A DNA stretch of 52,542 nucleotides from Thelocarpon superellum (taxonomy: Eukaryota). The stretch's first letter is position 1; every line of letters begins with the position of its first letter. Positions 21,350-50,779 of this stretch are shown one piece after another. Both the position numbers and the translations under genes were made by a program. Under the pieces are notes generated by a model, which saw only the letters and a program-made list of their open reading frames with translations, was not told where the DNA came from and did not search any database. The DNA lies in the NCBI GenBank assembly GCA_026025795.1, contig JAPEUG010000007.1:62001-114542 (forward strand), given 5' to 3'.

Positions 21350-22358
21350 GGCCGTGAAGGCCAGACACGCCGTCCCTGCATCGTGAGTTAGCTCCTCTCA
21401 CTACACGGGGAGAAAGAGAATGTATATCGCTCTAGAGATGAACAAGATGTCGGAACGCAAGTGAAGCAATCATGCCGCCGACAGTCTACCAACTTCCTCC
21501 TACATCGGCCATCGTATCGTTCACAGCTAGTGACTGTCTCTCTTACGATTGTCCGTGCCCGGCGCCAGCCGCTCACAAATCGCACTAACAGCCCGCGCTA
21601 AATCTCGACGCCAGGTAAAGTCGTGCACTGGCAACGCTTGAATCACGTGAACGCTAGTCCCAATCTCGTAACATGTTGTCACTCGCGACGGCCACCCCCC
21701 CTTCACACCCGCCATCACCGCCCCCACCTGCCAGGCCATGATGTGGTAGCCCTACGCGGCGTCACCCCGGGCGGAAAGAGAGTCTAACGAGCCTCTCGCT
21801 TGATGGCGGTGATCAAGCTTTTTGACACTGCTGCTGCTGCTGCTGCTGCTGCCGCACACCCAGTTTCCTCTTCTACGTCAGATCGGCGAGCTCTTCAGCC
21901 CTGCTGAGCTGCTTCGTCTTCTTCTCAAGCTTCCGGCTGCTCCGTTCTCTCCGATCTGCAGACACGTCGGTCCCTGTCTGTGCCCGGCCTCGTGGATGGT
22001 CTTCGGGCGAGCCTTCTCTTCCCGCCGCGGACGCTCTTCTCCTCGTCCGCCTGCCGCACCGGAGATTACTGCTATTCTTTCTCCCCCCCTTCCCTCGTCT
22101 GAGACTGCATGAGCACGCCCGCGTGTGGCCGCTGACCTGGCGGGTCGACCGCCGCTTTCCTTCCATCTCTCGTCCAGCTTCTTCCACCTCCTCAGGTAAG
22201 TTGGTGAGATTCCTCGTCTCCGTCGGACTGAGTTCTATTGCTGATTGGCCCTGCAGCGTCAAAGATTGCAGTCGGTCTTCCACACAGGCCCTACTGGGCT
22301 CGTCTCGAGCCAGAAACACCTCCATCTGAGATTGCATCAACCCCGTCCCTTCCGGATC

Positions 22359-24605
22359 ATGCACCGTACCACGTCTCAGGCTAGCGGCATGGGCCTGCCA
22401 CCCGCCCGCAAGAAGATGACGACGTACGGAAAGAAGAAGGCGTCCATCAAGAACCGCCTCGAGTCGATCTTCGATAAGATCTCGCCGGCAAAGCCGCGCA
22501 AATCCACGCCGGGCCAGGATGCCGAGGCTCTCGCTCCATCCTCCTCTTCCCTGAGAGCCCCGCCTGCGGGCTTTGACGGCCCCGATGAGCGCCCCCTCTC
22601 CATGGACGCGGGCAATCAGAAGCAACCTCATTCCCCCAAGACAACTGCGAGACTTTCCGTCATCATCTCTCCTAAGGGCAGCCCTGCTGCGAGGGATGGT
22701 CGTCGGGACGCCGTCGTCCTCTCCCCGAGCGTGTCCCTCACCTCACTCTCAAGGCTCAGCCTTCACTCTCCGGGATCGAGCCCGACCCAAGCCGACGCTC
22801 TCCAATCGAGCGCACGACTCATCGTTGGAGTCCTCGAGTCCGCCGCTGCGGACGACCGACCCGGCGACGCCTCGACTCCGTCTGTTGCTCCGCAGACTCC
22901 CAAGCCGGCCAAGGGAAAGGGAAAGGCCGATGCTATGGATGAGGAGGATGGCGATCCAGATGTGGCCCTATCCAGCCACCGGAGAGTTCGGAAAGTCATC
23001 AGCGTCGCGGCGAGTCCGCGAACTCCCGGCCAGTCCCTTCCGGCGTCTCCCACGCCCGTTCGCAGCCATCGCCGAAGCCGACATCAGTCAATGACGCCAG
23101 AGGTCCAGGCTTTCGGTCGCTATCGCAGCCTCCGTCCGCGTCTGGCGGTACAGCTCCGTCCCATCGCCGACGTCACGCAGCCCCCTACCAGCGGGGCGAG
23201 ACGCATCAAGTTTCTGCAGCCTCTGCTACGCCACTCGAATGAGCCTACGCATCGCGACGGGCCTGTGGGCTTCGACCAATGGGCAGAGCGGATCTCGGCT
23301 CGATTCTTGATCCAGAAGATTGCCGAAGCCTCCTACGGCGAGGTGTATCGCTTGAGCTATCGTGACAATCCGGACAGTCCGGTCCTGCTCGAGTCGATCC
23401 TGAAGGTCGTTGCCCTCAAGCCACAGAAGGGCACTGGGCCGAGAAAGTTGAAGACGGGGCACATGAGCGCCGTGCAGGATGTCGCCATGGAAGTGGAGAA
23501 CCTGCTCCGGCTGAACGAAATCCCGGGCTTCACCAACTTTCGCGACGTCTTCGTCCTCAGCGGTCGCATGCCACAGCGGTTTGTCGAGGCCTGGATGACG
23601 TACGTGTCTAATGGAGCAGAGACCCTCTTCCCGGACCCGTCGGACGAGTCGAGCTATGCCGAGGACCAGCTCTGGGCAGTCATCGAGATGGAGAACGCCG
23701 GGACGGACATGGACCGCATTCGTCTGCGGACGGACCTGCAGGTCTGGGATGTGTTCTGGGGCGTCGCGATTGCGCTGGCAAAAGCCGAAGAGACGGTCGA
23801 TTTCGAGGTGGGTCGAGAGACTTCATGCCGGGGGTCGACAGAAGCATACTGACGGTATATCATGATAGCACCGTGATCTGCACCTAGGCAACATCTGTGT
23901 TAGACCAGCGTACGGAGATAGCCTGGGCCTCAACATGCCTGATGCCGTCTGCGAACCCGTTCGGCGGGGGCAGAAGTTTGGCCTGACCATGCTGCGCACG
24001 ACCATCATCGACTACAACCTGTCGCGGAGCCTGATGGACGACGGTACGGAGACACAGCTGGTCCACTATGACCTGGAGAAGGACGAAGAGTTGTTCCAGG
24101 GACGTGGCGAGTATCAGTATGACGTCTATCGGTAGTGAGTATCGATCAATTCACCCTCATTTTGGCGTCACTGACCGTGTGTTTCAGCATGCGTTTGGCC
24201 GTGGCCGTACCGCAGCCACCGATTCCGCTCCTGGCGTCTGGAGAGCCGGCCAGTACGCCATTGGCCCGCCCTGATTGGAGCCGGTCGCAGCTCTACACCA
24301 ATGTGCTCTGGCTGCACCATCTGCTTGTGCGCCTTCGTGAGCTTCGGACCGCCGAGCCGCCGAAAATGGGTGGTGAGCCGATCGAGGCCGCAGTTATCGT
24401 AGCCGAGCAGGTTGCGGAGCTGCTGCCAGTCATGGAGGCGATTCTGGATCCCCGTGGTCGGACGTCCGTCGACATTCGGTCGGCCAAGGACCTCGTCCTA
24501 TGGGCGATGGGTGCAGGGTACTTGGGCCTGGAAGACGTCATCTCTCCCGAGAACCCGCACTGGCGAGACACGCGACCGCGTCCACTCCATGAGACGCTGG
24601 TCTAG
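22359..24605 (+). CDS. Haspin-family Ser/Thr kinase (Alk1/2, Hrk1-like), 3 exons; start codon uncertain (22359 or 22389)
   Basis: TYGKK N-terminal motif, KIAEASYGEVY, FE/HRDLHLGNICV across the first intron, IIDYNLSR, LFQGRGEYQYDVYR and TNVLWLHHL. Confidence 0.92.
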
Positions 24606-24796: not shown

Positions 24797-25072
24797 GTGG
24801 CCGGGCGCCCTTCACAACCCATGCTGCTGTGCACCATGAACATCGGGCGCCCTCCCAGATGTGCTATGTTGTGTTGCCAAATACATCGGGCAATCTTCAT
24901 AAAATCACATATGTCACTACTGAGATATCAGGCATGCTCCTGGGTAATTCTTGGCTAATGCCAACTATCATCGGGCACTCTTCTAGATGGTATGTAGCTA
25001 ATTCCAATCAGTATCGGGCGGTCTTCTTAGACTTTCGAGTCCAACAGTTGTAGATATCGGAAGCGCTTCCTA
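24797..25072. repeat. Phased motif array, block I: 7 units, period 42-43 bp
   Basis: Motif about ATCGGGCnnnCTTC with its anchor C at 24802, 24844, 24887, 24929, 24972, 25015 and 25058; spacers are divergent. Confidence 0.85.
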
Positions 25073-25159
25073 GTATTGGATCACAAACTGGATTGATAAT
25101 CAGCAAGATAACCCCGACGGCCCTCGCAAGAGAGCCAAAATGGACTTCAACGTCCTTTA

Positions 25160-25312
25160 GCTCGACACCAGGCGAATACCCGACGCGCGGGTACGATGAA
25201 GAGTCACGAGCTCGACAACCAGGCGAATACCCGACGCGCGGGTACGATGAAGAGTCACGAGCTCGACAACCAGGCGAATACCCGACGCGCGGGTACGACG
25301 AAAGACTCACGA
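25160..25312. repeat. 51-bp tandem repeat, 3 copies
   Basis: GCTCGACAACCAGGCGAATACCCGACGCGCGGGTACGATGAAGAGTCACGA at 25160, 25210 and 25261; copies near-identical. Confidence 0.97.
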
Positions 25313-25413
25313 GGTTGGCTGTTGATATGGAGGCGGAGGTTGGAACGTGGGCGCTCCGGATGGCGCAGAGGGCTGCACCCTTTTCCTCTTGTTGTGGGCA
25401 CTGTCACGATGTA

Positions 25414-25459
25414 TGACGTCAATTACGTCACGTGACGTCAGTCACGTGGTACACCACGT
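25414..25459. promoter_or_regulatory. Dense cluster of CRE (TGACGTCA) and E-box (CACGTG) palindromes
   Basis: TGACGTCA at 25414 and 25433; 14-bp palindrome ACGTCACGTGACGT at 25425-25438; GTCACGTG at 25441; ACGTGGT/ACCACGT inverted repeat at 25444-25459. Regulatory function is inferred only. Confidence 0.5.
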
Positions 25460-25570
25460 ACCATACATATCGCAGAATCCCCCACGTAGCTAGAATCAAT
25501 CAATCAGACAAAATACACAACAAGATTAGCCCTAAAGAACGTCACAGACGTGACGGTCGTTGCGGAGCCA

Positions 25571-25860
25571 TGACACAGAAGGCCTCCGAGAGGTTAGGTA
25601 TTAATGCGTCCTCGCTGTCTAGGGTGCTCCTAGATGTTAGGTCGCGCATTGGTACGATTATCAGAAGTACTTCTAGAAATCATTAGTTGAACTACGCGGA
25701 CTTGTTGGAGTGCCGCCAGATATTAGAGTGCAAATGGCCGTAAGTTGTAGGAGGCGCTTCTAAACATCACAATTCAGAATACAAATGACATCGGATGTGC
25801 TTCTCGGTATGAATCCCGAGATTGTACAATTAAACCGCTCGTTGTAGAGGACCCCCCTCT
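25571..25860. repeat. Phased motif array, block II: 6 units, period 43-44 bp
   Basis: Anchors at 25576, 25619, 25662, 25706, 25749 and 25792 (e.g. ATCAGAAGTACTTCT, ATCGGATGTGCTTCT); an off-register AGAGG-n5-CCTCT dyad at 25846-25860. Confidence 0.75.
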
Positions 25861-25877
25861 TCTCTGAGAATCAGTGT

Positions 25878-26057
25878 TGTTACGACAGGCGGCCTCAAGT
25901 ACTAATTGATTCAATCAAGCATGTTACATCTGTCAGTGTATGTATTACGTAGGCACCAACAGGTGATATGATCACGTGATTCTAAGTCAATAGTATGTAG
26001 TTGTAGCTAGCTAGTCAAAGTAATGAACCAATTTTCAACCTTATCATGTACAATACA
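25878..26057. mobile_element. Solo LTR, 180 bp
   Basis: TGT...ACA termini flanked by a perfect 5-bp duplication AGTGT (25873-25877 and 26058-26062); no second copy seen in the window. Confidence 0.75.
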
Positions 26058-26238
26058 AGTGTTGTAGGAGCATGCATGTGACCAAGTCATGTGCCCACTC
26101 CTATTACAATCCTGGCTACATGTAGATTAGCAATTCAGCTCTGATTTCTACATCTGGTAGCAACATGAGAGGTTATATCAAGATCAAGTCCTCTAGGAGC
26201 CTAGGATTGGAGCTCCCAACCATGAGCAACCATACAAC

Positions 26239-29200
26239 TGTCATGGATGTACTGTACAGTAGTATACCTAGTATCGCGATGTCATGTGATGAGTCACATG
26301 ACGCCGCATCACAGTATATAGGCTTAGCTAGCGAGCTAAGTTAATGAAGCATCTTACATCCCACTCATTGTACAGTATAGCTGTTACAAATGGTAGCAAC
26401 ACCATCGTTTTCTCTTGTCTGATTGTCTGTGGTTCCATCAGAGACTGGACCATCGTTGACAACAGCAGAGAGACAACAGAGTATCCTGCCCTCTGGTCAA
26501 GATCCTGGACAAGCCAGGGGTGAGCTATGACATTGTCGTCCTGCTCCCCACCATCCACAGACAAGCCTCGAGCTCCCACCATCAACAGTTGAGCCCCAAG
26601 CTCCCACCGCCATTCAGCCATCGAGCCACCCATCAGTTGACAATCCATTGTCACTACCACCATCCCTCCACTGTCACTGTCAGCTGCCTTACCACTGTGA
26701 CACCCTCGTCCCCAGCTGCCTGGTGTCTCTGTATGGGCCATGCCTAGGGCCCAGCTGAACAAGTCAACAATCCTTCTCAGCCGCCAGCTCCAGTCCTTTG
26801 AACAGAAGACGTCCAGCTATTCCTTGCTGCCCCACATCAAAGACCTGGTCGATCTGCTTCCACCTACTGACACAGACACATCAGTACCATGTTATTGGTC
26901 GACAACGTCACTGACATTTTGTACCGCTCTTGGACGCTTCGAGCAAGAGGCTTCTGTCCTCGTGTCCAGACGTAGCAGACTCCGCCAATCAGACATCCCA
27001 CAAGCTCTGTCAGCAAAGGCAGACACCTACAACAAGCTAGTTAGTGACAGAGAAGCCGAAGTTGACAGCAGTCAACAACAGCCTGATTCTGCTTACTGTG
27101 GTGATACAGACGAGCAGCTCGACGACAAGCCACTGGACATTCCCAAGCCAGCTGGCATACCTGTACTACTGACCAACCTCACTGTCAGTACACCAGACCG
27201 TCCCAAGCGACCAGACGTCCCACAATTCCCACAAGAGGCACCATCTCGCCATCCTCGTTCCATGTCTAGATACCAAGCTACTGCAGGACTGTCTTCGACC
27301 ACGTCGCCTCCAGTCATGGCAAACGACAGCTTCACCCCAACTATGCTTGAGCAGATGCGAGCACTGATCTCCAGCGTCATCGACGAACAGCTCGACAAAT
27401 AAGCTGGGAACTCTGCAGGCAACTCTGGTCAAACAACCAATGCCTCCACCTCTGTGGCTCGTCCTTTGGAGCAACCAACAGATGTCGCCAACAACGCCTC
27501 AGTCTTCAAGGCCAAGGACCTTGGCTTCTTCGACCTAGTCCCTGATGCCTCCAACCATAGCACTGCTTGTGGGAAGGATAGGATCTTCTGTAACGTCTAC
27601 AACTTCACCACAAACGCCTGAGTGCAAGCCAAGACTGCTAGCCATGCTGTCCTTCAGCGAAACATCCACAAATGCTTCCTGAACAAGGCGAATTTGTGGT
27701 ACACCAACAAGCTCTCAGAGCTTCAGTGGACAGGCCTACAACACAGTGCCAATATCAAAGCCTGGTGCAAGCTTCTGGAGAAACGGTTCCAGGACTCCCC
27801 AGGCAAGTCCTTGGCTACACTCGAGTCAATCCGGTACACAGTCGAGGACGCCTGACATCGACAAGATCCTGCCAACTACATTCAGCTAATCGTCACCCAC
27901 AGTCACAACACCAGTGTGGTCTGCAACGACTACACCCACTGCCTGACAGCATACAAGCATCTCAATGCTGCGTTGCGTGTGACACTCCCACAAATGCACA
28001 GCAGGATGACTGTCCCTGACCTCATCAAGTCCATGAATGAAATGAAGCACTCGTGGTACAACCTGTACCCACCACGCAACCACAGTAAATCCAGCCATTT
28101 CTTGTCTCCGTTCTCCTCTTCTTTGTCATTGTCAACACCCTCGTCGGCTTTTCCTTCATCGTCTACTGGATCCGGACCTGGATCCGGACTGGGCTACTAT
28201 AGCCACTGGGCCAATCGAGCTGACAACCCACAACAGGCAAGCAGACAACCTGTGCGAAACGAGCGACAGGGACAAAACGACTGGCGCGACTGAGCCGACC
28301 AGCCACCATACGATTGCGACGATCGACGAGAAGGCCCACACAACAACCTGCGAGATCCTGTCAAGCTTCCAGCTCCATGGTATGGGCAGAATCGCCCATG
28401 GAATGGGCTGCGTCGTGACAGCCGTGGCGCGCCTGTGCGCGCTCACCAGGCCAACGCTGGCCCCTCCAACACCAGCCCTGACAACGACAACATCCATGAC
28501 AATGGCTTCGCTGGCTATGCTGAGGCGTATAACAAAGACCATTTGGCATACTGGACTGGCCAGGGCCTCCTCTACAGTGGAGGTCCTGCCTCAGAAGAGC
28601 TGGCTACCAACAACGACGATACTATGGGCCCAAGCCCAGTCATCTGTCGTTGTCTCAACTGCGAGCGGATGTTTCCATTGTCCACCAAGCTCCACTCGCA
28701 TCTCCACAGCAGATGCGGCAAAGCCGCCAGAGCCATCAAGGCTGCTGCTATGAGCGTTGGATTGAACGACGCAGACGCTGCCGCTGCTGCACCTCTCACT
28801 GCCACTGCCAGAAAGGCTGCCACAACTGATGCTGCCACAACAACCAGCAAGTTGGCTGCAGTCAACAACCACACCATTATCGAATCAGACGCCGCTGGCA
28901 CAACCAGACCAGGATTCGGATTCCGCGATTGGCGCTACACCACTATGCCAGCCCAATTGACTCCTGACACCAAAGCAGAACCAGTCTGCCTCGACTCCAG
29001 ATGTGCTATTAGCCTGATCGATTGACAATTCCTGCAGTCGCAGGTGCCCAACGCTGTTGTCAAGCGCCTCGGCTCTCCTGTGACTGTCTGCAGAATATCT
29101 GCTAACCATCACGACACCAGTGAGTTTGTTGAGACAACACTCTACATTGATGGTGTCAGCTACACCAACAGCACACAAGACAGAAAGCCCATCACTGCTA

Positions 29201-32200
29201 AAATCGCGTGGGAATTCCATGTCGTGGATGGTCTCGAGGCCAAGCTCTTGATTGGCGTCGATGTCATGGGTCCTGAGGGGATGTCCCTCAACCTCTGCAA
29301 CTGGACCACAACTATCTATAGCTGTGGTAACACTGTCATCCCGCTGACTGTGACTCCCTCAGGCAATCCGACTGCTGTCAAGATTAAGGCAAAAAGGTGC
29401 ACAACAGTTGCGCCTCGAGCCATTGCCCAAGTCGCCATCAATGGTGCCACCAAGACAGTTCCACCAGGGCAAGACTGCCTATTCGAGCCTCACTTCGACA
29501 GCGCCTATGTGCATGTTGTCAACCACTCCATGACACACATCCTTGTCACCAATGAGAGCGACAGTGAACTTGTCATTCCTCAGAACGCCCACCTTGGTGA
29601 TGTCGTTCCCTACAAAATGGACAGATGCTTCCTGGCATCACCAGACAATCACTTGCTCACCACAGCTTCACCGTCGCACCTGTTGGGCACTCGGCCCACC
29701 AAGAACTGGGCCCACACAGCCACCAAAGCTGTTGTGACAGCCACAGCCTTCCATACCACCCTGAAGGCAGTGGCCCTGTCCACGCACACCAGCCTGACCA
29801 GCGTTGTCAAACCGAACTACAATGCGCTGCTGGAGCTGGTCATGCCCAACAGTGTGACGCTCTATGCAGGTGGAGACCCCAACAACATCGAGCGCCTCGC
29901 CGACCTCCTCGACAATCATGCACAGCTCTTCATCAACACTGGCAACACTGTTGACATTCCAGAAACAGAATGGATGACTATTCCTCTTGTCGATGATTGG
30001 TCGACCTAGTACAAGGCTGGTAACGCCAAAGTATACCCTGTTGGCCCAGCCGACCGAGCTGAGATCAATCACAAATTCGACCAGCTGCACAAGCAAGGAT
30101 GTCTTGAGTGGTCAAACCAGACAACGCCATTCTCCTTCCCCTGCTTCGTCGTTTGGAAGACTGTGCCCAATGGCACACAGAAGGGCTGCGTTGTCATCGA
30201 CATACACACTCTCAACTGTATCACTGTGCCAGACACCTACCCTATGCCAGCTCAGAGCGATATTATCGCTACAGTACACAGAGCGACCCATATCTCGACT
30301 GTCGACTGCTCTGCGTTCTTCCACCAGTGGAGGGTTGCACCAGCCAACCACCACAAGCTCGCTGTCGTCTCCCACCAAGGACAAGAGACATTCAACATCA
30401 CTGTTATGGGATATTGGAACTTGCCAGCATATGTGCAACAACAAATCGACAAGATCCTACAGGATTACTGCACCTACACACACGCCTACATCGACGACAT
30501 CACCATCTTTACAACTGGGTCGATCAGCAACCACATCGACACACTCAATCAGGTTTTCCACCAGCTACGTCGCTACAATGTGGCACTCTCTGCCAAGAAA
30601 TCGTTCTTGGCCTATCCTTCAGTCGCCCTTCTGGGGCAACGAGTTGACTGCTTTGGCCTCACGACAGCAGAGGACAAGCTACACACCATCATGAGGCTTC
30701 AGTTTCCTTGGACACTCCGCCAACTCAAGACCTATCTCGGAATGACAGGCTACTTGCAGCAATACATGCCGTTCTACACCCAAATCGCCGCACCTCTACA
30801 AGCGCAAAAGACCTGACTGACAGCTACAATCCGCGACTCTAGCACAACAGGACAGTATAAGCGCCAATCGTCTCGACTGCTGCTGGTGACACTGTCGAGC
30901 AAAGAACTCGACACATTCCACCAGCTGCAGCAGATGTTTTCCCAGCCGACAGTCCTAACGCACTTCAACCTGTCACACCAGCTGTACATCGACCTCGACG
31001 TGTCCAAAACCTTCAGCTTTGGCACAATGGTTTACCATTCAAAGGTGGATAACACAATGTTGACTGCAGTCAACATCGCCACTTCGCTGGACACGCCGTC
31101 GGGGACAGCGACAACAATTGCTCGCCCAACAACTACAACGCCATTAGCGACTGTACATCCAACAACGCTGGCACCACCAAAGAAGTCGGACATCCAGCTG
31201 ATACTGTTCCTCAGCAAGCTGCTGAGCAGGCCAGAAACGCACTACTGGCCCACAGAGCTGGAAGTCGCCACACTCGTGTGGACAGTGCAGAAGATCCGAC
31301 ACCTTGTTGAGTCAACCACCACAACGATGATCGTTTACACCAACCATAACACCACAGTAATGATCACCCACCAAACAACGCTAGTGACAACCACAACCAA
31401 TCATTTGAACCTACAACTGATCTGTGTGTTGGAATACCTCCAGCGGTTCAACCTTGACATGCGATACCACTCTGGGGTCTCTAACAAGGTTCCTGACACA
31501 CTGTCGAGACTCGTCCAGCACAACGCAGAAGACAACAACGCACCAAGCGACGCTGCAGATACACCAATGGATGTCGCACACACACGCCTGGCCAACCGCT
31601 TCAGACAACTACCACTACCCACCAGCACCAAGGCCACACCGACGACCAACAACAGCATACTCGACGCACTCCACAGAGAACCTGCGTATACATACACAGG
31701 GGCACTTGTCGAGATGTTGGACAAATTCAAGCAGCGTCTGCTTGACAGATATTCCGAAGACCCGCGCTGGGCCTGCATACGCAACCAGCTTGACACCAAC
31801 GACGCTCTTGGCGCCAATGCCACAGAGCTACCATTCGTGCGAAGAGACAGCGTGCTGTACCACGTCGCACACAAGGGCCTCGAGCGACTGGCCATTCCAC
31901 AAACCATTGTTCGTGACATGTTTCGTATGGCTCACAACAACCTCAGCCACCCAGGATTCCACCAGGTCCATGCCCGCCTTGTCGACACAGTCTGTATCCA
32001 TCAGATGGCAACGCAATTACAGGCCTACTTACGCCACTGCCCTGACTGCCAGAAGATGGCAACGCCACAGCACAGCCTGTACAGCTCAATGCAGCCAATC
32101 CGATCTCTGCCAGCACCATTCCATACCATCACTCTGGATTTCATCCTGGGCTTGCCAACATCGACATTGTCGACTGGCAACACCAACTGCATCATGTCAG

Positions 32201-33557
32201 TCACAGATAAATTCAGCAAACAGACAACCTTCCTCCCTGGCTGTACAACTTATGACACTACCATGTGGGCAATGCGGCTCCTCGAGCGCCTTGCCTTCGC
32301 AGATTGGGGTCTTCCCACTGTCATTCTTACAGACTGCAACCTGAAGTTCCTCAGTGAGCTATGGTGCCAGATTTTCGCCCAGCAGAAGGTCTGCCTTGTT
32401 TATTCAGCGTTGTACCATCTGCAGACTGATGGCCAATCAGAGCAAACAAATCAGACAGCAGAGATCGCGCTTCGGTACCTGATCGCTGGCCTCGATAAGC
32501 CAGCAGAATGGCCAAGCCTCTTGCCTCAGCTGCAAGAGACACTCAACAATTCTGTCTCTGTTGCCAGACAATCCACCAACAAGATCGTTTACAGCTTTTG
32601 CCTGCGCAAGCCGATCGACCTCCTACATGCCACCGATGATAAGGCCAGCAGCACAGGAACAGAAGCAGAAGCCACAAACCACGACACAGAACATGCAGCT
32701 ATACGCGCTGACATCACAACAGCTCTCGACTTCGCCTGCATGACAGCAAAGCTGCACTACAACTGTCGACATACTGCGTGATTTCTCGACATCGGCGACT
32801 CTGTCATGCTGCAGCTACACCGCAGCTACCATCTCCTCGACAAGACAAGTCGCAAGACTGGCTAGCAATTTGCTGGACCTTTCCGTGTCGTCAAGCGCAT
32901 CAGGTGTCTCACGTACCACCTGAACTTTCCATCAAGTTGGAAAGTTCATCCAGTTGTGTCAATCGCGCACTTGGAGCTGGTACCACCACCCTTGGACAAT
33001 CCATTCAACCAGGCGCATCCCACAGAGCCGCCAGCTGTCACAGTCGGTGACAAGCCAGACCACTACAAGATCGAACACCTCCTCGATCGACAGATCATCC
33101 AACACAGACATGGTGTCTCATGCCAATATCTTGTCCACTGGAAGGGTTATGACAAATGCCACAACCAGTGGTACACCCTACACCAGCTGGACCACACGAA
33201 AGAGCTCGTGGACAACTACAATCGAGCCAACCCGCTCCCAGCATTCACGACCTGATGTCATGACGCTGGTATCTCCACTCGACTGCCTTGTTGACAGCAG
33301 TCACCTTTCGCTATGGAACAACCAATATGCTATACGACTACGACTACATCTTACACTGGAATGGAATGGGACAACAGGGCGTTGTCATTTCTTCAATTGC
33401 CAGCACTTGTCACAGACGTACTGTACAGTAGTATACCTAGTATCGCGATGTCATGTGATGAGTCACATGACGCCACATCACAGTATATAGGCTTAGCTAG
33501 CAAGCTAAGTTAATGAAGCATCTTACATCCCACTCATTGTACAGTATAGCTGTTACA
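26239..33557 (+). mobile_element. Element B: full-length chromodomain-bearing Ty3/Gypsy element (7.3 kb) inserted in the 5' leader of A
   Basis: 150-bp LTRs at 26239-26388 and 33408-33557; perfect TSD ACAAC; PBS TGGTAGCAAC at 26391. Confidence 0.96.
26740..33255 (+). pseudogene. Element B single-frame gag-pol (Gag, protease, RT, RNase H, integrase, chromodomain) with premature stops
   Basis: ORF pieces starting at 26740, 27622, 27916, 28435, 29044, 30163, 30886 and 32956 are all in one frame. Motifs: CLDSR (protease, G->R), AYIDD, YWPTELEV, HTITLDFILGLP, QTDGQSEQTNQ, YLVHWKGY. The stops are TGA/TAA/TAG, compatible with C->T changes. Confidence 0.93.
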
Positions 33558-33653
33558 ACAACCAAGTTGTAACCTCATATGACAAGAAGCAGCTCTAGGC
33601 AACAGAGCACAGTTGATATCCTAGACCCTGTCCTACAAGGGCCCCTAGGGACC

Positions 33654-36600
33654 ATGGCTGGTGAACCTAGTGAGTGTATGATGGACCTGGACACCTTGAT
33701 TGATCACTGACAGCCTCTAGGCCCACTAAATGACCTCTAGCAAGACTCCCTAGCACAGGGCCTAGCAGAGGATTGTAATGTGTTGTTGGACACAGCAAGT
33801 GCAGAATTGCAGTGTACAGCAGTGATTACCCTAGTTTGATTGATGTATCAACCTCTGCTAGCACAAATGGCAGCTCTAGAGAAGTTTGATAGCAAGATGA
33901 ACAATAGTGCAACAATTTGGAAATGGCTTGAGATTATGGAGACCTATCTACAAATGACAGAGATCCTAGTTGAGAAGTGTACAAGCTTTGCCTTGTCATA
34001 CCTGAAGGGCCTAGTGTGTAGCTAGTATACCTAGTAGGTGATTCAACAGGTTAAGGGACTAGGTGATACATGGCAGGATTTCAAGAGGCTGGCTCTTGAG
34101 AAGTTCTATGATCACAACAGTGAGGAGAAAGTGTATAACAAGCTCCATTCCATGCAATTCTGGAATGGATTAATCTCAGACTTCAACAACAACTTCTACA
34201 ACATGTAGCTTAGTTGTGGCAAGAAGGTCAACAAAGATGTGGCAATGACAGTGTATACTTAGACACTCCTAAGAAACACCAAATTTGATGTTAAGGGAGC
34301 AAGGCCACAGAACCTGAGAGAGGCTATGATTGAGGCTGAACATGTAGAGGAGAAGAATAGACCCCACTTCTAGAGGGTTCCTCAATCAGTCAGCTACCCT
34401 CTACAACTAACAGCTATCAACACTATGTAGTCACAACTATACAAATGTTGTAGAACACAAGGAAGGGGTTACAGATGTGGTGGAACTAGAACACCATGTC
34501 TAGTGATGTGCTAGACATGCCAAAAGACAGGGCATATCTCAAGAGACTGCCTAGGGAAAGGACAGGCCTGTATGACTTAACAGAATTGTATAGGCTAGAA
34601 CATACACTGTCTATCAAGCTGAAGACACTAGCTGTGAATGGTGTGATGGGGGTGTAGGAACCCCATAGGGCTATGAGGACACTTGTATAGCCTGGAGGAA
34701 TGGACTATATATCAGCAAGATTGAGAGTGATATCACTAGAATCCTCAAGTGTCTGGATTAACAGAAGGATGTACAGGAGGACTATACAATTTCTAGTGGA
34801 TAGTGGAGCTATGTATCACTTCATATCCTAGAGACTAGTGAACAAGTTGGAATTAGTAGTGACACCTACAGAAGGACATGTGGATCTTGGAGGAAACAAG
34901 AACATGTAGACACTTGATATCAAGGGATTTGTACACTACTAATAGACCTGCAGAGCATTCAAGAATAACACAGATTTCATTGTAGTGGATATAGAAGCAG
35001 ATGCCATCCTAGGACAGGACTTCCATCATCAATATCAAGCAATCTAGGACTATGATAACAGTAGTGTCATTATACAAAAGGATGGAGCAACCCACATGCT
35101 ACACAGATTGGAAGAACAACACAGGACAATTGACAATCCAAAGCTATAGCACTTCAACCTAGCTAGCTATAGGGAGCTGCAGCACTAGCTGGACAGTGAG
35201 ACAGAGTTTAGCCTACACTTTGTACAGCTGCAACACAACAACAAGAAGGACAGGAGTGCTTAACAGAAGCACTAAACAAACCATTCAACAGGAGACCCCA
35301 AACTTGACTATGAGCTAGGCCCTCTCCTGCAACAGTTCTGTACAGAGCTTCCTAAGAGAGCACTACCACCCTTAGACATCAATCACCAAATAGATATAGG
35401 AACAGCTACCCCTATCTGCAAGAATCCATACCCCTTATTAAAGGAGTAACTGGATGAGTAGAATTGACAGATCTAGTACCTACTAGAATGTGAGCTTATA
35501 CATCCAAGCTCATCACTATAGGGAGCACCTATTCTATTTGTCAAAAAGAAGAACAAGGAATAGAGGATGTGTATCAACTATTAAGCTATCAACACAGTCA
35601 CTATACAGAACAGTTACCTGCTTCCTTGGATACAGGACTGCCTTGATTTTGTAGGAAAGGCTAGGATCTTCAGCAAGATAGATCTATTAGTAGGATACTA
35701 GCAAGTCAATGTTGTAGAAGTGGATTGATATAAGACAGCTTTCACAACATGTATAGGAAAGTACAAGTAGTGTGTAATACCATTTGGTCTTACTAACACA
35801 CCTGGATCCTTCTAGGAGATGATGAACAACCTGTTTAGAGACATGATCAACAAGTTTGTCATCATCTACATCAACAATATCCTCATATACAGTGACAATT
35901 GTATGTCACACCTGACACATGTACAATTGGTCTTTGAACAGCTCTAGCTATGTAGCCTATAGGCTAAGCCATCAAAGTGCACATTCCTTGTCAAATCAAT
36001 TAAGTTCATTAGGCACATTCTAGAAGGGGGAGAGGTGTGTATAGAGGACAATAAGCTCCATACAATCAAGGAATGGCCACCCCTTAGGACAACACACAAA
36101 GCACACATGTTTCTAGGACTCTGCTCCTATTATTGACAATTCATTAAGGACTTTGCTATCCTCACAGCTCTGCTCTACACCTTGATCTATAGGGCTTAGA
36201 ATGTATAGCATCAACCTGTATGTTGGACTGTGTTGTGCAAAGCAGCATTTGACAAGCTTAAGAGCAAGATAGCTAGTGATGTTGTCCTAGCTCAACTAGA
36301 CTACAACAAGCTGTTTATCATTAAGACAGACACCTTGGACTACACCTAGGGTGCTGTTCTGCTGCAGAACACAGATGTACAAACTGAACAACTAGTAGTG
36401 TTTGACAGCAAAGCATTTACTAGTGCAGAACAGAACTACACAACTCATAAACACAAGCTTCTAGCTATCAAGATGGTGTTGAGGAAATGGAGAGTCTACA
36501 TCTAGAATAGCCACAAGACAATTGTATGGACAGACCACAGGAGCCTGCAATACCTGAAGACAACAAAGAACCCCTTAGATCAACTAGCAAGATGGCTTTT

Positions 36601-37639
36601 GGAGTTCTAGGAGTACAACCTTGATATCATACACAAGCCTAGAAGTAAGATAATAGTGACAGACACACTATCAAGAAGAAGTGATTACCAGTGTACAGCT
36701 GCAATCAACACAATGGAATGGGTAGACTACATGCTAGAGTTCCTCAAGACAGGCACAAAGTCACTAGACAAGACAATTAACAAAGAGCTTAAGAAGCACA
36801 AGGACAAGCTTTGATTGGATGAGGACAGATGTACAGAACACTAGAACAGCCTAGAGGAGCCCTAGATCCCATATGTTGAGCTATGGAAGTGGACAAGTTT
36901 ATTAGATCACCTACATTATAACTATAGGCATGTTAGGAGACTCCTGTTAGAGAGCCTCCTAAGGACTAGGGGATGGTGGCCTATGTGGAGAAAAGACATA
37001 CAACACTATACATCCTACTGCAAAGAGTGCTAGCTAGCAGCAAAGCCACAAGATCAACTAGACAAGCTGCACCCCTCTATATCATGGGGTTCTACAGCAC
37101 TGAGGCCATTTCAGTGCTAGGGTCTAGACCTAATAGGCAAGCTTCCCTATACAGAGAAGGGAAACACCTGGATCATCACCATGATCAACTACACCACCAG
37201 GTGGCTAGTAGCCAAGGTAGTACCACAAGCAGACACAGAGACACTAGCAGACTTCATCTACAATAAGATCTATCTACTGTACAGTACACCTCAAGAGATC
37301 CTAACAGACCAAGGACTGAACCTATAGGTGCCAGCAATGGCTCTATTCCTGCAACAGATGAAGACAAAGCATCAAGGAACTACACCATATCACCTACATA
37401 TAAACAGACTAGTGGAATGACTGAACAGGATACTAGGCAGCATGCTGTCCAAGTACATCACCTATTAGCTACAACACAACTAGGACCTCTATGTGAAGCA
37501 GGCCCTGTTTGCTGCACATGTATGTACATATAAGACAACAACAATGTTGCCTTTCAAGCTGCTCTATAGTGTGGAGCCTCACCTCCTAGGTGATTAGGCA
37601 GGCCCAACACCCCTGACAGAGGATGAGCAAGAGGACCCT
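33654..37639 (+). pseudogene. Element A gag-pol, 5' part (Gag with CCHC knuckle, protease, RT, RNase H, integrase core), heavily mutated
   Basis: C*TCQKTGHISRDC at ~34508, LVDSGA at ~34793, YINN (mutated YIDD) at ~35865, IKTDT (IETDA) at ~36320, integrase-like sequence at 36900-37600; interrupted by element C. Confidence 0.9.
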
Positions 37640-38100
37640 GTGCCTGTGACAACAAAGGCCTACAGCTAGGTGGAAACAGTAGATGTAGTCAATGGAGTTG
37701 ACTATGTGGCTTCTAGGGCTCATAGACCTATGACTAGCCTCCTTGTGTTACTCAAGTTGAACACTGGGGCTCTGCTAGCTTGTAGTGGGACTTGGTTTAT
37801 ATACAGTATGCTAGGTTATGTGCTGTATCATGTGACTGTCACATGGCTATCACATGATCACTCTTATCCTTGTGGCAAGGTGTGGAGCTCCTGGCCTCAC
37901 AATTACCCCCTTCCTTAGCACTCTGTTCTAGGAGTGCACACAGCTATTTACCTGCTGCTATTGAACTAGTGGCCCTATGGGGTGGTTGTCAATAGCACTG
38001 TAGGGCTAGGGCAATGTGTTGTTGTTGTGTTGTAGTGAATTGCTGCTAATTTGCACATTGTTGATATTTGTTATAGGTCTGTTGACACTCTGCTTCTTCT

Positions 38101-38875
38101 ATAGCTTCTTTGTTAACTAGGATCTTGATCTACAATTGTTGTAGCTTCTTTGTTCAAGGATATCCTGTGTTTGTTCTGCTCCTGTTCTGCTTCCATTGAT
38201 CTGCTTCTGCCTCTGTTCTGCTTTTGCCAAACCTTATGATGTCTACTATGTTCCCTAAGCAGGTGGCTGTGCCTAGCCTGCCTCCTGTGTTGGATTGGAG
38301 TGCTTGTCAACACTGCATCAAGTGGATTAGCCACAACTACAGCCATAGGTGCCATAAGCCTAATCTGTATAGGAAGTGCAATAGGTGCTAAACTACTAGG
38401 CACCCCTGTCTCTTAGTACATCAATTGCTCTGCTGTGTAGCTGTGCTGATTTGTTGTTGTTAACTAGATTCTAACAAAGTTTGTAGGACAGGTTAACACT
38501 ATCTTCTAGCTGCAAGAGCAGTACATGAACTTGCTCCTTCATCCTCCTACTAACACCATTGTAGTAGAAACACAGCTAGAGACCTATAGGTCTAGCCTAC
38601 TGCTCCACATCTTGAAGTTCTGTTCTACTGTTGAATTTAACAAGTGTGGATGGTGTGATAGCAGCACTCTTCTTGCTGTGACTAAGCACTTGAACTTCCT
38701 CCTAATGGAGATCCTGAACCAGCTGTGCTACTTGGTAGGTGTCTGTGTTGTCTCTGCTGCTTGCTAGGTGTTGCTCACATTGTAGTAGAATCGATTCCCT
38801 GTAGTCTGCCTATTTAGTCCTAACAAGGACCTAGACCTTCTAGACAAACCACTTAAGGGCAAGGCTGCTCCTTAA
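38101..38875 (+). pseudogene. Spliced Cys6 protein gene, antisense to element C
   Basis: CQHC-x11-C-x8-CNRC-x6-C at 38305-38409; a phase-0 intron at 38416-38467 (GTACAT...GCTGAT...TAG) joins it to the frame of ORF 38525-38767. Gene ends are approximate. Confidence 0.65.
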
Positions 38876-38924
38876 GTGTGTGGTTTCACAATTGGCAGAG
38901 TTAACCCTAGTACAAACCCTAGCT

Positions 38925-41555
38925 CTCAATCTAGTGTGCTGCACTCTAGAGGTAGTGTCTCTACTACACAAATGCTGTAACAATTGCTAGCATCTCTAGG
39001 TTGCCTGTATCATAGTTGTACTTAGTGTCTCTAAGCTTGTGCAAGTAGAATGCAATAGGTTGCTATTAGTGGTATAGCTTCTTGTCTTCCTAGTGCTGCT
39101 GGCATAGGATTCCTGAGATGCCTATCTATGAGGTGTCTGTCTTGACCTGTAGGGGGAGGCAGGGATCAAAGTGGCCTAAGACTAGTGCCTTGGTGAAGGT
39201 GTTGTGTAGTTGTTTAAAGGAGTAGTAAGCTTCCTGTGTCAATACCACTAGTGTGTTTGACTTCTTGCTTAGTGTCTTCACTAGCACATTGAGTGGCTGT
39301 GCAAGCTCTGCAAAGCCCTTGATGAAGTGCCTGTAGAAGTTTGTGAATCCAATGAATGATTGGATATCTCTTGTAGTCTTAGGAGCTGGCTATTCTACAA
39401 TAGCTTCCACCTTGCTAGGGTCCATATAGACCCCCTAAGGTGTAATGACATACCCTACAAAGGGGACTTTGTTGATATTGAACTAGTACTTTTCTAGCTT
39501 GAGAAATAGGCTGAGGTGTAGGAGGTGTTCAAGCACCTTGTACATGTGCTGTGTGTGCTTGGCCTTGACTTCACTGTATATGACAATGTTGTCCAAGTAT
39601 ACTACACAGAAGTTGTTTAGGTATTCTACTAGTTCTCTATTGATATAGCTCTAGAATGTAGCAGGGGTGTTGACAAGCCCAAATGGCATCACCTAGTATT
39701 CGAAGTGTCTATATCTTGTTTAGAAGGCTGTCTTCTACTTATCCCTGTCCTTGATGTGGATCAGGTTGTATACAGCACATACATTGAGCTTGGTGAACAC
39801 CTTGCCCTACAAGAGTTGATCTAGCAACTTGCTGATCAATGGCAGTGGGTGCTAGTTCTTCTTGGTGATCTTATTGAGACCCCTGTAGTCTACACAGAGT
39901 TGTAGTCCCCTGCCTAGCTTAGGTGCAAAGAGGACTAGGGCTCCTGCTAGCAACTTGGAATACTGGATGAACCCCTTTTCTAGGTTGGTTTCCATGTAGT
40001 CCTTGAGGATGCTTAGCTCTGTAGCTGATAGGTTGTAGAGAGGCCCCTATAGTGGCTCTCCCTCTGTGAGGTCAATGGCTATGTCATGTGGCCTATGTTG
40101 CAGTAGCTGGTTTGCTAGCTCCTTAGAGAAGACCTAATCAAGGTTAGAGTATTCAGGTGGTATAGATTGACTAATAGACACAGCTACTATAATGTAGTGC
40201 TCTTGTTAGTTGTTGTCCTTGTAGGACATGTAGATTGCAAGGACACTGATGTGCTCCTACTCCACTGCAGTGGCCAGCTCTTGGGCCTTCATGATTGTGA
40301 TGTTGTCACACTACTGTAGGATCTTGCCTCTGTGAGTCCATGTCTTTGTTGTCTAGCAGATGTCTGGGTTGTGCTTGTTAAGCTACAGGTAACCTAGAAC
40401 CATCTTGTACTAGTTGAATGGTGTAGCCACAAAGGAGTCCTTTGAGTCTAGGACCTGCCCTTTGCTATCTCTAGCATGGCTGGTCAACTGCTTGACCCTA
40501 TATGTAGGGATATGATGTCCTCTGAATGCTATTACCTGTAGGGCAGGCTTGTTGCAGTCACATAGCTACAGCTCCTTAGCTAGTAGATGTAACACAAAGT
40601 TTTGTTCTACTCTAGAATTGATTAGTGCTGTGGCTGTGACTGTCCTGTTGTCTTGTAGGATCTCAATTAGGATGACCAATTGTCTTGTGTTGGTCTCAGA
40701 ATGGTGACTCAGTAGTGCTGACATAATGTCTACTAAGTCCCTGCTTTTGGGTTGTGTGCTGGCTTCCCTTGCTTCTTGCTATAGCAGTCCTTCTCCTTAT
40801 GGCCCTTGTAGCTACACTAGTTGCATTTGCCACTAAACCCCTTTGATGTTGTATAGGTTGAACTACTACTATAGTCCTAGGGCTTAGTTGATGTGGATGA
40901 GGTGTTTAATGTTAATAGGGCAGATGTGTGGTTCCATGTACAGCTCCCTCCTATTGACTGGTTTGGTAGGGATCAGCCTGACTATGACATCAATCAACTG
41001 CTTCCACACAGCTGTAGCACTGATCTGCAGCCCTGTTTGGGTCCTGAGCCTAGCCCTAGGGCCCTGCTTACAGCCTGAGGGTTCAGGAGTTGCTGAACCT
41101 TAGATGCCTCTACTATTAGGCTCTCTTGATTGGTAGGGTGTTTGTCCTTAGTGTCAAGTTCTTGTTGTATCTCTAGTAGTAAGCTGGCCTATAGCACTCT
41201 AACACAAGCTGTGTTGTTGATAGGGTCTATGAGGTCCTCTAGTGATTCCAGGTAGGATACAAAGCAAAATAGGTCCTGTCCTGGCTTCTGCTTTGCTCTG
41301 TAGTATGACTGTGCTGCACTGTTAGCTCAGGTGTTGCTAGGGTTGATCAAAAGTTGGAAGAAGTTCTTAACTTCCTTCCAGGTTGTTAGTGGTGTGGCCC
41401 CTGCTTGCTTGTGTACAAACTGGTTGACTATGCCAGGCCCTAGCTAGTTGCTTGCAAGGGTAAGCTAGTCCTCATCTGTCTTATAGGTGTACAGCTTGGT
41501 GTGTAGAAGGTGTTTGACATAGTAGACCTAGTATTGCTACTTGTTGTAGGTGTGA
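38925..41555 (-). pseudogene. Element C gag (3' part), protease, RT and RNase H; the 5' part of gag lies at ~49494-49976
   Basis: CN*CSYKGHKEKDC knuckle at ~40800, LINS (LIDSG) at ~40620, VVYLDN at ~39595, HFDP...KTDTS...PIAFY...EMLAIV; homology stops abruptly at ~38925. Confidence 0.88.
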
Positions 41556-41860
41556 CTGTTTGTTACACATGTGTCTTGAATAGTCCTAAAGAGGTTGACT
41601 GGTCAGGGCTATAGTGAAGGGGTGTTGATTCTTAACTAGTCTAAGTCACTAAGCAGTGTGGGTTTAAATAGTAGCCCACCTGCTTACTAACTAGTCTAGT
41701 CTCCTTAGGTCCTTCCAACTGAGCCCTAGTCTCCCTGGGTCCTTCTGACTAAGCCCTAGACTAGTCCCAAGGTCTGTCTGACTTGTCCTGTAACACTGCA
41801 TCCCCCTCTTCTAGCTTCTTGTCCTGAGAAGCTTGTTGTCACTAGTCAGGATTAGGTTGA

Positions 41861-43768
41861 TTAGGTTACCATGGGTGAGGACTTGCTAAGTTGCTAGTTG
41901 AGGGTGTTGCAGAAGTCTCAAACCATCTGGACCTTAGATTTGAAAACAAGGAATATCATCAGGGTCGCTAGCTGTCCCCTCCTATTGTCTGGTCAGTTTT
42001 GAAGTTTGTAAAGGGCCCACTAGACATGGTGTCTCTAGACATGGTTGTTGAAGTTGTTGACATATTCTATAGTAGACATGTCTCCATCAATGAGACTGTT
42101 AGCCATGTTGTGATAGGTGTCTCTTCCTCTATGTTCCACATGTAGGAATAGGACATAGTAGGCTTTAATGTCCACTAGGGCCTATGTCAGGAACAATCCT
42201 AGTGTGAATTGTGCATAAACTGTTGATCTGGCTTGTCGCTTGAGTAGGATCGATGCTGGTGGCTTAGGGGTCAAGTCTGGATTTTTTTGTTGCCTCTTCT
42301 TCTAATCCATCACAGCTTTTGCCAATTCTGGACAATCTATGTAGAGGGTGCTGTACACAAACTTTGTGAATTTCAGATTGTAATCTGCTTAGAGCACAGC
42401 AAGAGGTTGTCTGGAAGGGGCCTATCCTCCTTTAACCAGCAAGAGCAGGATTTGTCTAAGTTAGTCTATGGAGAAGTGGGTTAGGTCCCTGTCTAGCAGT
42501 CCTAGGATCTTGTGAGAATGGTAAAGCAAAGGCACCACTGCCAGGAGTTTGTCTTGTTGTATCCCAAAGGCTGTGATTGGCATACATTCTCTTACTACAT
42601 TAGATAGGTGTAGCTGGGCTCTAGTGTGTGTGTCCAGTGGTGTCTTAGGATTGGGGATGAGTGTGTTGTCCTGATTGTGGAATCCTGGTGAGATTGTTTG
42701 TGGACCCTTCTCTACTGGCATTGTTTTGGCCTATTGTCCATTATCATCTCCTTCTGTGTCTGTCTCTTGTAGTTGCACTGTTGGTGGTATGGGTGTTATT
42801 GTTAGGATTGGTTCTTGCATGGGGGTGCTTGAGAGGACTGGGGACAGGAGTCCTTGGGACTCTGTGCTAGTCTACAACTAGGTACTTGTAATTAGTGGTG
42901 GTGGTTGGTGCAGTGCCCCTTGTCTCCTTGATGTGACTGGTTGTGGTGATGATCCTTCCTGTTAGCTTGGCTCTAGTCAACCTGCTGTCGCTTCCTAGGT
43001 GGGTTAGCTCAACTGCTGGGGATTTGGGTGATTCTGGTCTGAAATCGGTCCCTGCAGTGGGAGGTTTTGCTAGACTTGTCCCAAGTTGTACTAGGGTTGG
43101 GGAAGGGCAGTGTAAGAAGAGGGTAGCTGGAGGGGTTGTTGCACATGCCACTTGGAGTTATGTGGTTGGGGATGGTAGTAGCCATAGATAGGATAGTTTG
43201 GGTATGGGGATGGAAGTTGATGTCTATATAGTAATGGAGGTGGGCTGTACCTGAACCCTGGGTGTAGCCTGTAGGCAAATGGAAAGTTCAGAGCTGTGTA
43301 TCCCAAGTTGTGGATAGCTGGGACTAGTCTTGGACTAGCATCCTGTAGCAGGGCTGGCTGTGTCTAGTAGTTCTAGTGTGTCTGGTACTGGGGTGTAATT
43401 CCTGGGTACTCCAATTGCTGCTTGTGTAGTTGAGGTCCTAGTGGGTGCCTTGCCTGGTTGGCTTGTGAGGTGCTGTCTAGTAGCTGTTCATTGTTCTCAA
43501 TCATTGTACTGTATGAGTGGTGTCTTGGTTGTGGCTGGTTGATCTGTGTGGTGGATGAGTTGCTAGGCTATCCTTGCCTAGCAGCTTCTGCTCTGTCTTG
43601 TCCTGTCAAGACTTGTCTAGTATCAGTTAGTGGATACTAGGGCTCTGTTTGGCTTGAGTGAGGCATAGGTGTAGGGGGTCTTGGGGTGTGATGTGGTGGA
43701 GGTGGTGGTAGTGGCATGGTTGTTCAGTTCCCCAGGTATAACAGCTTGTTGTCATCATGACTTGCCAT
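41861..43768 (-). pseudogene. Element D extra 3' ORF (~636 codons, Pro/Gln-rich N-terminal part), same strand as pol
   Basis: ATG at 43768 (MASHDDNKLLY...). The same frame includes ORF 43091-43306 and the protein-like segment RQARSTVYAQFTLGLFL...DIKAYYVLFLHVEHRGRD from 42238. The internal stops in the stretches translated are TGA/TAG. Confidence 0.65.
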
Positions 43769-50741: not shown

Positions 50742-50779
50742 GGAGGTGTATAGCAGAGGCACAGCAACAGGGCCTAGGT

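Follow-up and report, generated by a model that had tools for sequence, protein, structure and literature searches.

The question raised by this locus is why, in non-coding DNA just downstream of a protein kinase gene, a short motif returns every 43 bp while the DNA between its copies drifts, and whether such a pattern points to a function or to the decay of an old repeat. The window, by which we mean the whole stretch of 52,542 bp that was analysed, is made up of two rather different parts. The first 24.7 kb have a high GC content (0.55-0.62) and contain housekeeping genes, namely those for Med20, a GH47 mannosidase, a nucleoside-transporter-like protein, CCDC47 and a haspin-like kinase. From approximately 25 kb on, the GC content is down to 0.41-0.53 and the DNA consists of retrotransposon remains. 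The array lies where the two parts meet and has a GC content of 0.47, compared with 0.57-0.62 in the gene part. The gene next to it is:

22245..24605, plus strand: 3' exons of the haspin-like protein kinase gene, with Pfam Haspin_kinase matches on two ORFs

The first of these ORFs (22245-23852) matches the Haspin_kinase profile with an E-value of 1.4e-9. The second (24123-24605) covers profile positions 294-363 of 364 with an E-value of 0.0044, which is below the curated cut-off. The stop codon of the gene ends at position 24605 and the array starts 190 bp further on. As to the relationships of the organism, an 802-aa ORF in the window has its best match at 49% identity and, among named organisms, comes closest to Acarospora (40% identity) and Trapelia (33% identity), both of them lichen-forming fungi, which makes a lichen-forming ascomycete the probable source.

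A 43-bp array in three blocks

The array and the piece that interrupts it were mapped as follows:

24797..25103, plus strand: block I, seven units of 42-43 bp and the left part of a split eighth unit
25104..25578, no strand assigned: 475-bp piece that splits the array within a core, delimited by phase, contig depth and contig ends
25576..25834, plus strand: block II, the right part of the split unit and five units of 43-44 bp
25835..25991, plus strand: eroded tail with two or three unit-like remnants, recognised by eye only
51945..52264, plus strand: block III, eight eroded units with the same motif and orientation as blocks I and II

For blocks I and II, the anchors, the steps between them and the core sequences read exactly as reported in the preliminary description, which had been made from the sequence letters, and the same is true for its two perfect 12-bp palindromes (25059-25070 and 25663-25674). 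The units follow each other head-to-tail in steps of 42-44 bp. Block I, with the core (C/T)AT-CGG-N5-CTYC, is the best-preserved portion of the array, and the tail remnants, for example those near 25844 and 25885, are off strict phase and without a profile match. The periodicity had been proposed for a check against shuffled sequence, and the peak is indeed significant. In an alignment-free self-match over lags 1-120, no lag scored higher than 43 in either block (match of 0.406 and z of 6.69 in block I, 0.391 and 5.06 in block II), with a 95th percentile of the best z across all 120 lags of about 3.3 in the control of 300 dinucleotide-preserving shuffles per region. When 129-bp sliding windows were moved over all 52.5 kb, the match at lag 43 exceeded 0.42 only at 24888-25142 and 25575-25764. 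Tandem Repeats Finder returned 64 rows for the window and none with period 43, indicating that the array is too diverged for that program. We agree that this is not a protein repeat, as 43 is not divisible by three and no ORF of at least 120 aa lies wholly inside block I or II; two ORFs of 120-131 aa overlap the array region and run mostly through the inserted 475-bp piece.

Blocks I and II, which had been described as two separate blocks, are one array that was cut by a 475-bp insertion or captured fragment. This follows from the phase: position 25058 plus 43 gives 25101, where CAG stands after AAT, and block II opens at 25576 with CAG followed by AAGGCCTCC. Deleting 25104-25578 in silico moves the anchor at 25576 to 25101, which restores the exact phase and rejoins the split core. 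CAG is found at both joints (25101-25103 and 25576-25578), and we read this as a target duplication or as microhomology. The piece contains a 51-bp tandem repeat in three copies and a cluster of palindromes with an ACGT core. Over its right two-thirds the contig depth is 4-10 times that of single-copy DNA, with values of 600-1148 at 25305-25565 and 95-158 in the flanks in the source run. Other copies of the piece lose the match at 25576 (three source-run contigs and one metagenome contig), and the contigs of two metagenome runs start matching at 25104, the left limit having fewer supporting data than the right one.

The third block came out of a search of the window, with 24700-25900 masked, for matches to a profile of 12 units from blocks I and II. 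The four best matches lie at 51945-52219, all on the plus strand, and each of them is weak when taken alone (E 0.9-6.9). However, all four matches scoring at least 3.8 lie no more than 300 bp apart. In 100 shuffles that preserved dinucleotides, the largest cluster of matches had a size of 1 in 96 cases and of 2 in four, and none reached 3 or more. The anchors of block III are at 51954, 51988, 52039, 52082, 52125, 52168 (a visual call), 52202 and 52244, giving steps of 34, 51, 43, 43, 43, 34 and 42 bp. Past this block, the window closes with 60 CT-rich bases, a composition common in fungal core promoters. An inverted partner array is missing from the window, though one could lie outside it: all three blocks have the same orientation, and the minus strand holds no cluster of sites.

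Between the tail of block II and block III lies a 26-kb nest of LTR retrotransposons (25992-51901) with the following parts:

25992..26060, plus strand: relic like the 3' half of a short Gypsy LTR, identified by sequence identity; start of the nest
26061..26152, plus strand: TG...CA element of about 90 bp with a very high copy number (family D6)
26155-26165: PBS-like TGGTAGCAACA after the first 90-bp TG...CA element
26239..33558, plus strand: Ty3/Gypsy retrotransposon with 151-bp LTRs at 26239-26389 and 33408-33558
33564..51811, no single strand: remainder of the nest, with degenerate remnants of LTR retrotransposons on either strand
37644-37901 and 50032-50289: LTR-like pair in the rest of the nest
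41561-41798 and 49254-49491: further LTR-like pair in the rest of the nest
51799-51809: purine run AGGAGGGGGAG before the second 90-bp TG...CA copy
51812..51901, plus strand: second copy of the 90-bp TG...CA element, 91% identical to 26061-26152; right end of the nest

The relic at the start of the nest is 70% identical over 73 bp to 26313-26385 and 33482-33554 (E 3.8e-5). The first 90-bp element has a depth of 28508, compared with about 100-157 for single-copy DNA, and loose ends at 26063 and 26152/26154; no target duplication was seen by eye for the 90-bp pair (26061-26152 and 51812-51901). The Ty3/Gypsy retrotransposon is flanked by a perfect 5-bp target duplication (ACAAC at 26234-26238 and 33559-33563). 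Its LTRs are 96.7% identical, and its consecutive ORFs, which lie in the same frame and are interrupted by three in-frame stops, code for RVT_1, RNase H and Integrase_H2C2 domains according to Pfam. In the rest of the nest, a Pfam scan of 58 stop-free ORFs of at least 62 aa, just two of which reach 110 aa, gave weak rve, RT_RNaseH_2 and RVT_1 matches in three ORFs, all below the curated cut-offs. Tyrosine recombinase and DNA transposase domains were absent from the ORFs scanned in the window, whose mobile-element domains are only those of reverse transcriptase, RNase H and integrase; a scan of this kind could overlook short or badly degraded genes. Block III begins 44 bp past the second 90-bp copy. 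As a block with the same motif lies beyond the 26-kb nest, the nest sits inside a once longer array, and the simplest reading is that 25992-51901 was inserted into formerly continuous intergenic DNA of at least 1.6 kb that carried the array, 21 or more units of which are recognisable.

Outside this locus, nothing related to the array was found in the material searched. Blocks I and II are single-copy, each being found on one contig with single-copy depth among the source-run contigs at a likeness of at least 80%. Over block I the depth of the source-run contig goes from 157 to 95, contig depth not being readable as a signal of such a step. Two low-depth moss-metagenome runs match parts of the region, for example 25608-25758 with one difference, and give no cover of block I. 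The match at 25608-25758 comes from the same or a very close organism and adds no evolutionary depth. In metagenomes, pairs of cores separated by 27-31 bp were found at 40 loci, none of which is related to the array; the majority are perfect tandem repeats of high GC content that have a period of 14, 21, 42 or 45 bp, and two loci with a 45-bp period, a multiple of three, are probably coding (L001 and L018). Within the window, a weight matrix of block I had only four weak matches beyond blocks I and II, and the motif is not enriched elsewhere. A literature search of limited extent, which does not imply absence from print, found no description of such a 43-bp array.

Conservation within the unit and erosion beside repeats

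Thirteen units of blocks I and II could be aligned nearly without gaps over 15 core and 29 spacer columns. The spacers had been called nearly unrelated. This proved incorrect, as their mean pairwise identity is 0.342, compared with 0.261 ± 0.009 with shuffled letters (z 9.1), and it is scarcely different between adjacent (0.365) and distant units (0.338). The spacers are therefore homologous and near saturation, which indicates that the array arose from tandem duplication and not by the addition of foreign spacers.

The core columns have an average identity of 0.606, which is distributed very unevenly. There is no variation in columns 9 and 12, and 12 of the 13 units agree in column 3, in column 10 and in the last column, whereas columns 5, 7 and 8, located between kept ones, have a near-random identity of 0.27-0.29. 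The kept columns are mostly G or C, though the local sequence has only 47% GC. Uniform-rate decay, matched for mean identity, was simulated 3000 times for each of two tree shapes. With a star tree, none of the simulations came up to the observed variance of column conservation and 0.13% reached the mean of the top five columns; with a Yule tree, the corresponding figures were about 0.5% and 2.6%. Under the less favourable Yule tree, P is only about 0.005-0.03, and these simulations take the array as noticed, although only arrays with a surviving core get noticed and ascertainment inflates the apparent constraint. Since columns of the two kinds, invariant and saturated, alternate within 12 bp, the pattern would not be explained by conversion tracts that homogenised the units. 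The statement that the motif is conserved while the spacers drift is hence accurate for the core columns, which the simulations find to be better kept, and has to be modified for the spacers, which still share ancestry. Motif and spacing being kept better than the rest of the unit, with columns so uneven, a protein-binding reading is reasonable. The palindromic character ascribed to the core fared less well. Apart from the two perfect palindromes, the symmetry is weak: complementarity is confined to columns 3 and 12, which pair in 12 of 13 units, and columns 6 and 9, which do so in 10, and no covariation beyond the column make-up was detected (42 of 78 cells, 38.0 ± 2.6 expected, P 0.10).

The three blocks differ in how much of the core they have kept. 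CGG stands at the anchor in six of the seven units of block I, and in only one of six and two of eight units of blocks II and III, respectively. The corresponding counts for CTYC are 7/7, 5/6 and 5/8, against a background of 0.092 in random 12-base windows. Lost CGGs read CAG, TGG, TAG, AGG and once TTG, which are mostly transitions at CpG, and the left half-site of block II was likewise altered mostly through transitions. Block I adjoins a gene, whereas blocks II and III adjoin multi-copy DNA, and the composite RIP index is positive in block II (+0.11) and negative in block I (-0.99). In four repeat pairs of the nest, all 44 of 44 differences are transitions and there are no gaps; 33 of these transitions are in CpA, nine in CpG and two in CpC context. 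RIP leaks into nearby single-copy DNA, as stated in the available part of one report (PMC2973834), and RIP-affected low-GC repeat regions occur in lichen-forming Xanthoria according to the available part of another (PMC13486527). Hence, RIP leakage or CpG deamination may have caused the loss of CGG in blocks II and III. With CGG largely gone from these blocks and interruptions of 475 bp and 26 kb tolerated, constraint on the whole array at the present day is unlikely.

Constant spacing as proof of selection was dropped as an argument. It needs an indel-to-substitution rate, and the local calibrator, with its 44 transitions and no gaps, reflects RIP and not ordinary drift.

Known systems and competing explanations

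Minisatellites are tandem repeats of 10-100 bp, and some have a better-conserved core inside the unit. The array is similar to them in being non-coding, in having units of about 43 bp that follow one another head-to-tail and are homologous over their entire length, and in its origin by tandem duplication, but it differs in that its units are nearly saturated with changes and yet have a few individual columns without any variation. Another tandem duplication that multiplies a short protein-binding motif in non-coding DNA beside a gene, producing a homotypic cluster of transcription-factor sites, is known from the cyp51A promoter of Aspergillus fumigatus, with repeats of 34 and 46 bp; as described in the accessible part of the source, it consists of two or three copies, which are recent and nearly identical and for which both the binding factors and the target gene are known, whereas the motif here is a putative binding motif and the array has at least 21 old, diverged units (PMC9239056).

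The array has one feature of a homotypic cluster of binding sites, a recurring short motif with base-specific conservation above its surroundings, the extent of which is inflated by ascertainment. Heat-shock elements and the named zinc-cluster consensus sites known to us do not fit the core. The fission-yeast Pho7 site, 5'-TCG(G/C)(A/T)xxTTxAA, has some likeness to it: in the part of the source at hand, this zinc-cluster (Zn2Cys6) site is also a two-part, asymmetric site of 12-13 bp in which TCGG is followed at a fixed distance by a short T-rich element (PMC5559640). However, the array has another spacing and another second element, CTYC five bases after CGG, and we take this as resemblance and not as membership. 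The array would seem to resemble zinc-cluster sites without matching them. With the Drosophila gypsy insulator, as presented in the available portion of the paper, the array shares a dense row of at least a dozen degenerate motif copies, spacers of lower GC content and an association with Ty3/Gypsy elements. That insulator, with 12 Su(Hw) sites within 340 bp of AT-rich DNA, has a spacing of about 28 bp on average, lies in the 5' untranslated region of its element and travels with it (PMC2374998). The array, in contrast, has a regular 43-bp spacing and is single-copy host DNA into which elements have inserted. It also lies outside the mapped LTRs and target duplications of the window, that is, not in the gypsy-type position inside a retrotransposon between the 5' LTR and gag.

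The DNA transposons CACTA/En-Spm, hAT and Mutator have subterminal binding-site repeats. A Starship element known from lichen-forming fungi has direct repeats of 4-5 bp and terminal inverted repeats of 10-12 bp, and the terms 'tandem repeat' and 'subterminal' each occur 0 times in the portion of the paper's text available (PMC13486527). As far as these sources go, the likeness consists of short motifs repeated near the end of a large inserted block; the array differs in being single-copy, regularly phased, in the same orientation on both sides of the nest and without a captain or transposase. CRISPR-like arrays have near-identical repeats and unrelated spacers, whereas here the cores vary and the spacers are homologous.

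How, then, did the core survive? An old eroded minisatellite had been named as the null model. This is correct for the origin of the array and, as regards function, a strong rival, which we consider a real possibility though one short of an even chance. On this view, slippage or unequal exchange multiplied a 43-bp unit in intergenic DNA that is dispensable, and the resulting array, which has no function, has decayed from then on, the core being the product of chance, of mutation rates that differ from site to site and of a bias in what is noticed. The homology of whole units, the single-copy state of the array, its location in a low-GC, transposon-invaded compartment (0.47, against 0.57-0.62 in the gene part), the two tolerated interruptions, the loss of CGG in 11 of the 14 units of blocks II and III and the lack of a relative at the 40 metagenome loci with paired cores are all in line with it. 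What it accounts for poorly is a conservation of columns more uneven than uniform decay yields, with invariant columns standing between saturated ones within 12 bp. In addition, the kept columns are mostly G or C and include CpG, which mutation bias and deamination would be expected to remove first.

The other explanations are far less probable. If the array were part of an ancient mobile element, it could have served there as subterminal binding sites for a transposase or recombinase, or it could be a tandem array from the interior of an old non-autonomous element. Past selection would in that case belong to the element family and not to the host; this explanation we regard as improbable. The array is located in a transposon-rich zone, transposon-borne site arrays are known, for example in the gypsy insulator as covered by the accessible text (PMC2374998), and a 12-base direct repeat flanks the whole array region (24731-24742 and 52480-52491), its local alignment score of 24 lying between the 95th percentile (20) and the maximum (25) of 300 shuffles. 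But blocks I and II are single-copy at a likeness of at least 80% in the source run, all blocks have one orientation and no inverted partner within the window, and the scanned ORFs have domains of LTR elements only, with no transposase or tyrosine recombinase. The array also lies outside every LTR element with mappable ends, and such arrays are not mentioned for the Starship of lichen-forming fungi in the available text (PMC13486527). The proposal of a mobile-element terminus is thus not borne out: the transposons interrupt the array and do not carry it. Least credible of all, with hardly any probability left to it, is the suggested repeat-spacer RNA precursor, a transcript that would be processed into pieces of about 43 nt. 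The regular length of the units and the partial palindrome in their short core would suit it, but the spacers are homologous to each other and not acquired, the repeats are far from identical, and there is no periodic or unusually stable fold. Folding of block I gave z-scores of -0.42 on one strand and -0.53 on the other, and block II, with a z-score of -2.40, showed no periodic hairpins; an Rfam search had 0 matches at E-values of up to 1. We know of no repeat-spacer RNA system in eukaryotes.

Origin and possible function of the array

Based on these results, we conclude with good confidence that the array originated by tandem duplication of a 43-bp unit and was later split by insertions. Its function is harder to judge. 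Our preferred reading, to which we give roughly an even chance, is that of a worn cluster of putative protein-binding sites with a past or present function. The base-specific conservation favours candidate sites for a protein that would read CGG and CTYC five bases apart. Duplication of the unit produced one long intergenic array of at least 21 units, covering about 1.1 kb or more before the insertions. The units have since diverged nearly to randomness except for a few core positions, that is AT, CGG, about five free bases and CTYC. According to this model, the core was most likely preserved by selection, past or present, for a DNA-binding protein that is sequence-specific and recognises two short half-sites, and the array would represent a homotypic cluster of binding sites, for example for a CGG reader of the fungal zinc-cluster type. 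In the next step, the array was cut by the 475-bp insertion and by the 26-kb nest of LTR retrotransposons, and the units beside these repeats then lost their CpG half-site via C-to-T and G-to-A changes that would be due to RIP leakage or CpG deamination. Block I alone still looks intact. The support for a function comes from this single locus, and ascertainment, the erosion of two of the three blocks and the tolerated interruptions weigh against a present function.

One might also speculate that the array acts as a platform onto which a sequence-specific protein is loaded and which marks a chromatin boundary between the housekeeping genes and the repeat compartment, although we consider this quite unlikely. 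As 43 bp correspond to approximately four helical turns, a protein bound to the sites could oligomerise along one face of the DNA, and Ty3/Gypsy integrases could be tethered to this protein or its chromatin. Such tethering would explain at least three independent insertions in about 1.5 kb of array DNA and the lack of any large insertion across 24 kb of genes.

The locus is informative beyond the array. It holds a very abundant LTR-like element of just about 90 bp, and it provides a clean case of RIP-type mutation in this lineage, with 44 of 44 differences being transitions and 33 of them at CpA. If the array is neutral, it is an ordinary old minisatellite and a warning that a conserved motif with drifting spacers can arise from the way in which arrays get noticed. 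To our knowledge, gene regulation in lichen-forming fungi has been little studied. If the core of a worn cluster of this kind is truly a binding site, it would be a cis-element candidate in these fungi, and the locus would be a natural example of a site array that was dismantled by retrotransposon insertion and RIP leakage.

Flanks of the array region and other repeats

The array of eroded 43-bp units is flanked on both sides by the 12-mer CATACGTTCATT in direct orientation (window 24731-24742 and 52480-52491). Aligned, this pair scores 24; among 300 shuffles the highest score was 25 and the 95th percentile 20. It may be due to chance or be what remains of an insertion or duplication long ago. 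Across the end of block II, positions 25804-25971 of the window are covered by two contigs of the sequencing run behind the assembly, one with a depth of 110 and no differences and the other with a depth of 43, nine substitutions and three gaps; this could point to another genotype or to an additional copy.

Tandem repeats and a palindrome cluster were found in the 475-bp piece inserted between blocks I and II and in a gene part of the window:

10529-10645: 18-bp tandem repeat, 6.5 copies of AAGAAGGCGGCCGAAGAA, within an ORF
25159-25313: 51-bp unit in tandem, 3 copies with 96% matches, within the inserted piece
25410-25470, also 25540-25556: dense cluster of ACGT-core palindromes, within the multi-copy inserted piece

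A copy of the 51-bp repeat in a metagenome contig shows 20 differences over 125 bases, a likeness of 84%. The palindromes include TGACGTCA and CACGTG, each present twice, and the cluster looks like a group of bZIP/bHLH sites from a transposon promoter. The 18-bp repeat probably encodes a Lys/Ala/Glu-rich protein repeat.

A metagenome contig with 43-bp units

Four 43-bp units are also located at the end (936-1089) of the 1089-bp metagenome contig L006, which is fungal in appearance and has one intron (GTGAGT...TAG). Each unit contains a kept core of 27 bases with TATCGGGCTTCCTTCC, while the rest is variable. The likeness to the window array may be due to chance, because the shared core and the period range of 41-45 bp were preset by the pattern with which this contig was found.

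Retrotransposons and RIP-type changes

The retrotransposon DNA between blocks II and III includes the following elements:

26061-26152 and 51812-51901: TG...CA element of ~90 bp, two copies
26239-33558: Ty3/Gypsy element with very short LTRs of 151 bp

The LTRs of the Ty3/Gypsy element are 96.7% identical, its target duplication (ACAAC) is perfect and only three in-frame stops are present over ~4.5 kb of pol. Its empty target site was seen uninterrupted in metagenome-run contigs, in related copies of the repeat that received the insertion.

The ~90-bp element has inverted ends (TGTAG...CTACA); the PBS-like TGGTAGCAACA comes after one copy, and a purine run stands before the other. Its contig depth of 28508, versus ~100-157 in single-copy DNA, suggests some 200 or more copies. 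The element would be an unusually short and very abundant LTR or solo-LTR family.

Four repeat pairs of the window were compared (26239-26389/33408-33558, 41561-41798/49254-49491, 37644-37901/50032-50289 and 26063-26152/51812-51901). All 44 differences are transitions, without a single gap; they fall at CpA in 33 cases, at CpG in nine and at CpC in two. This pattern is a clean signature of RIP in a lichen-type fungus.
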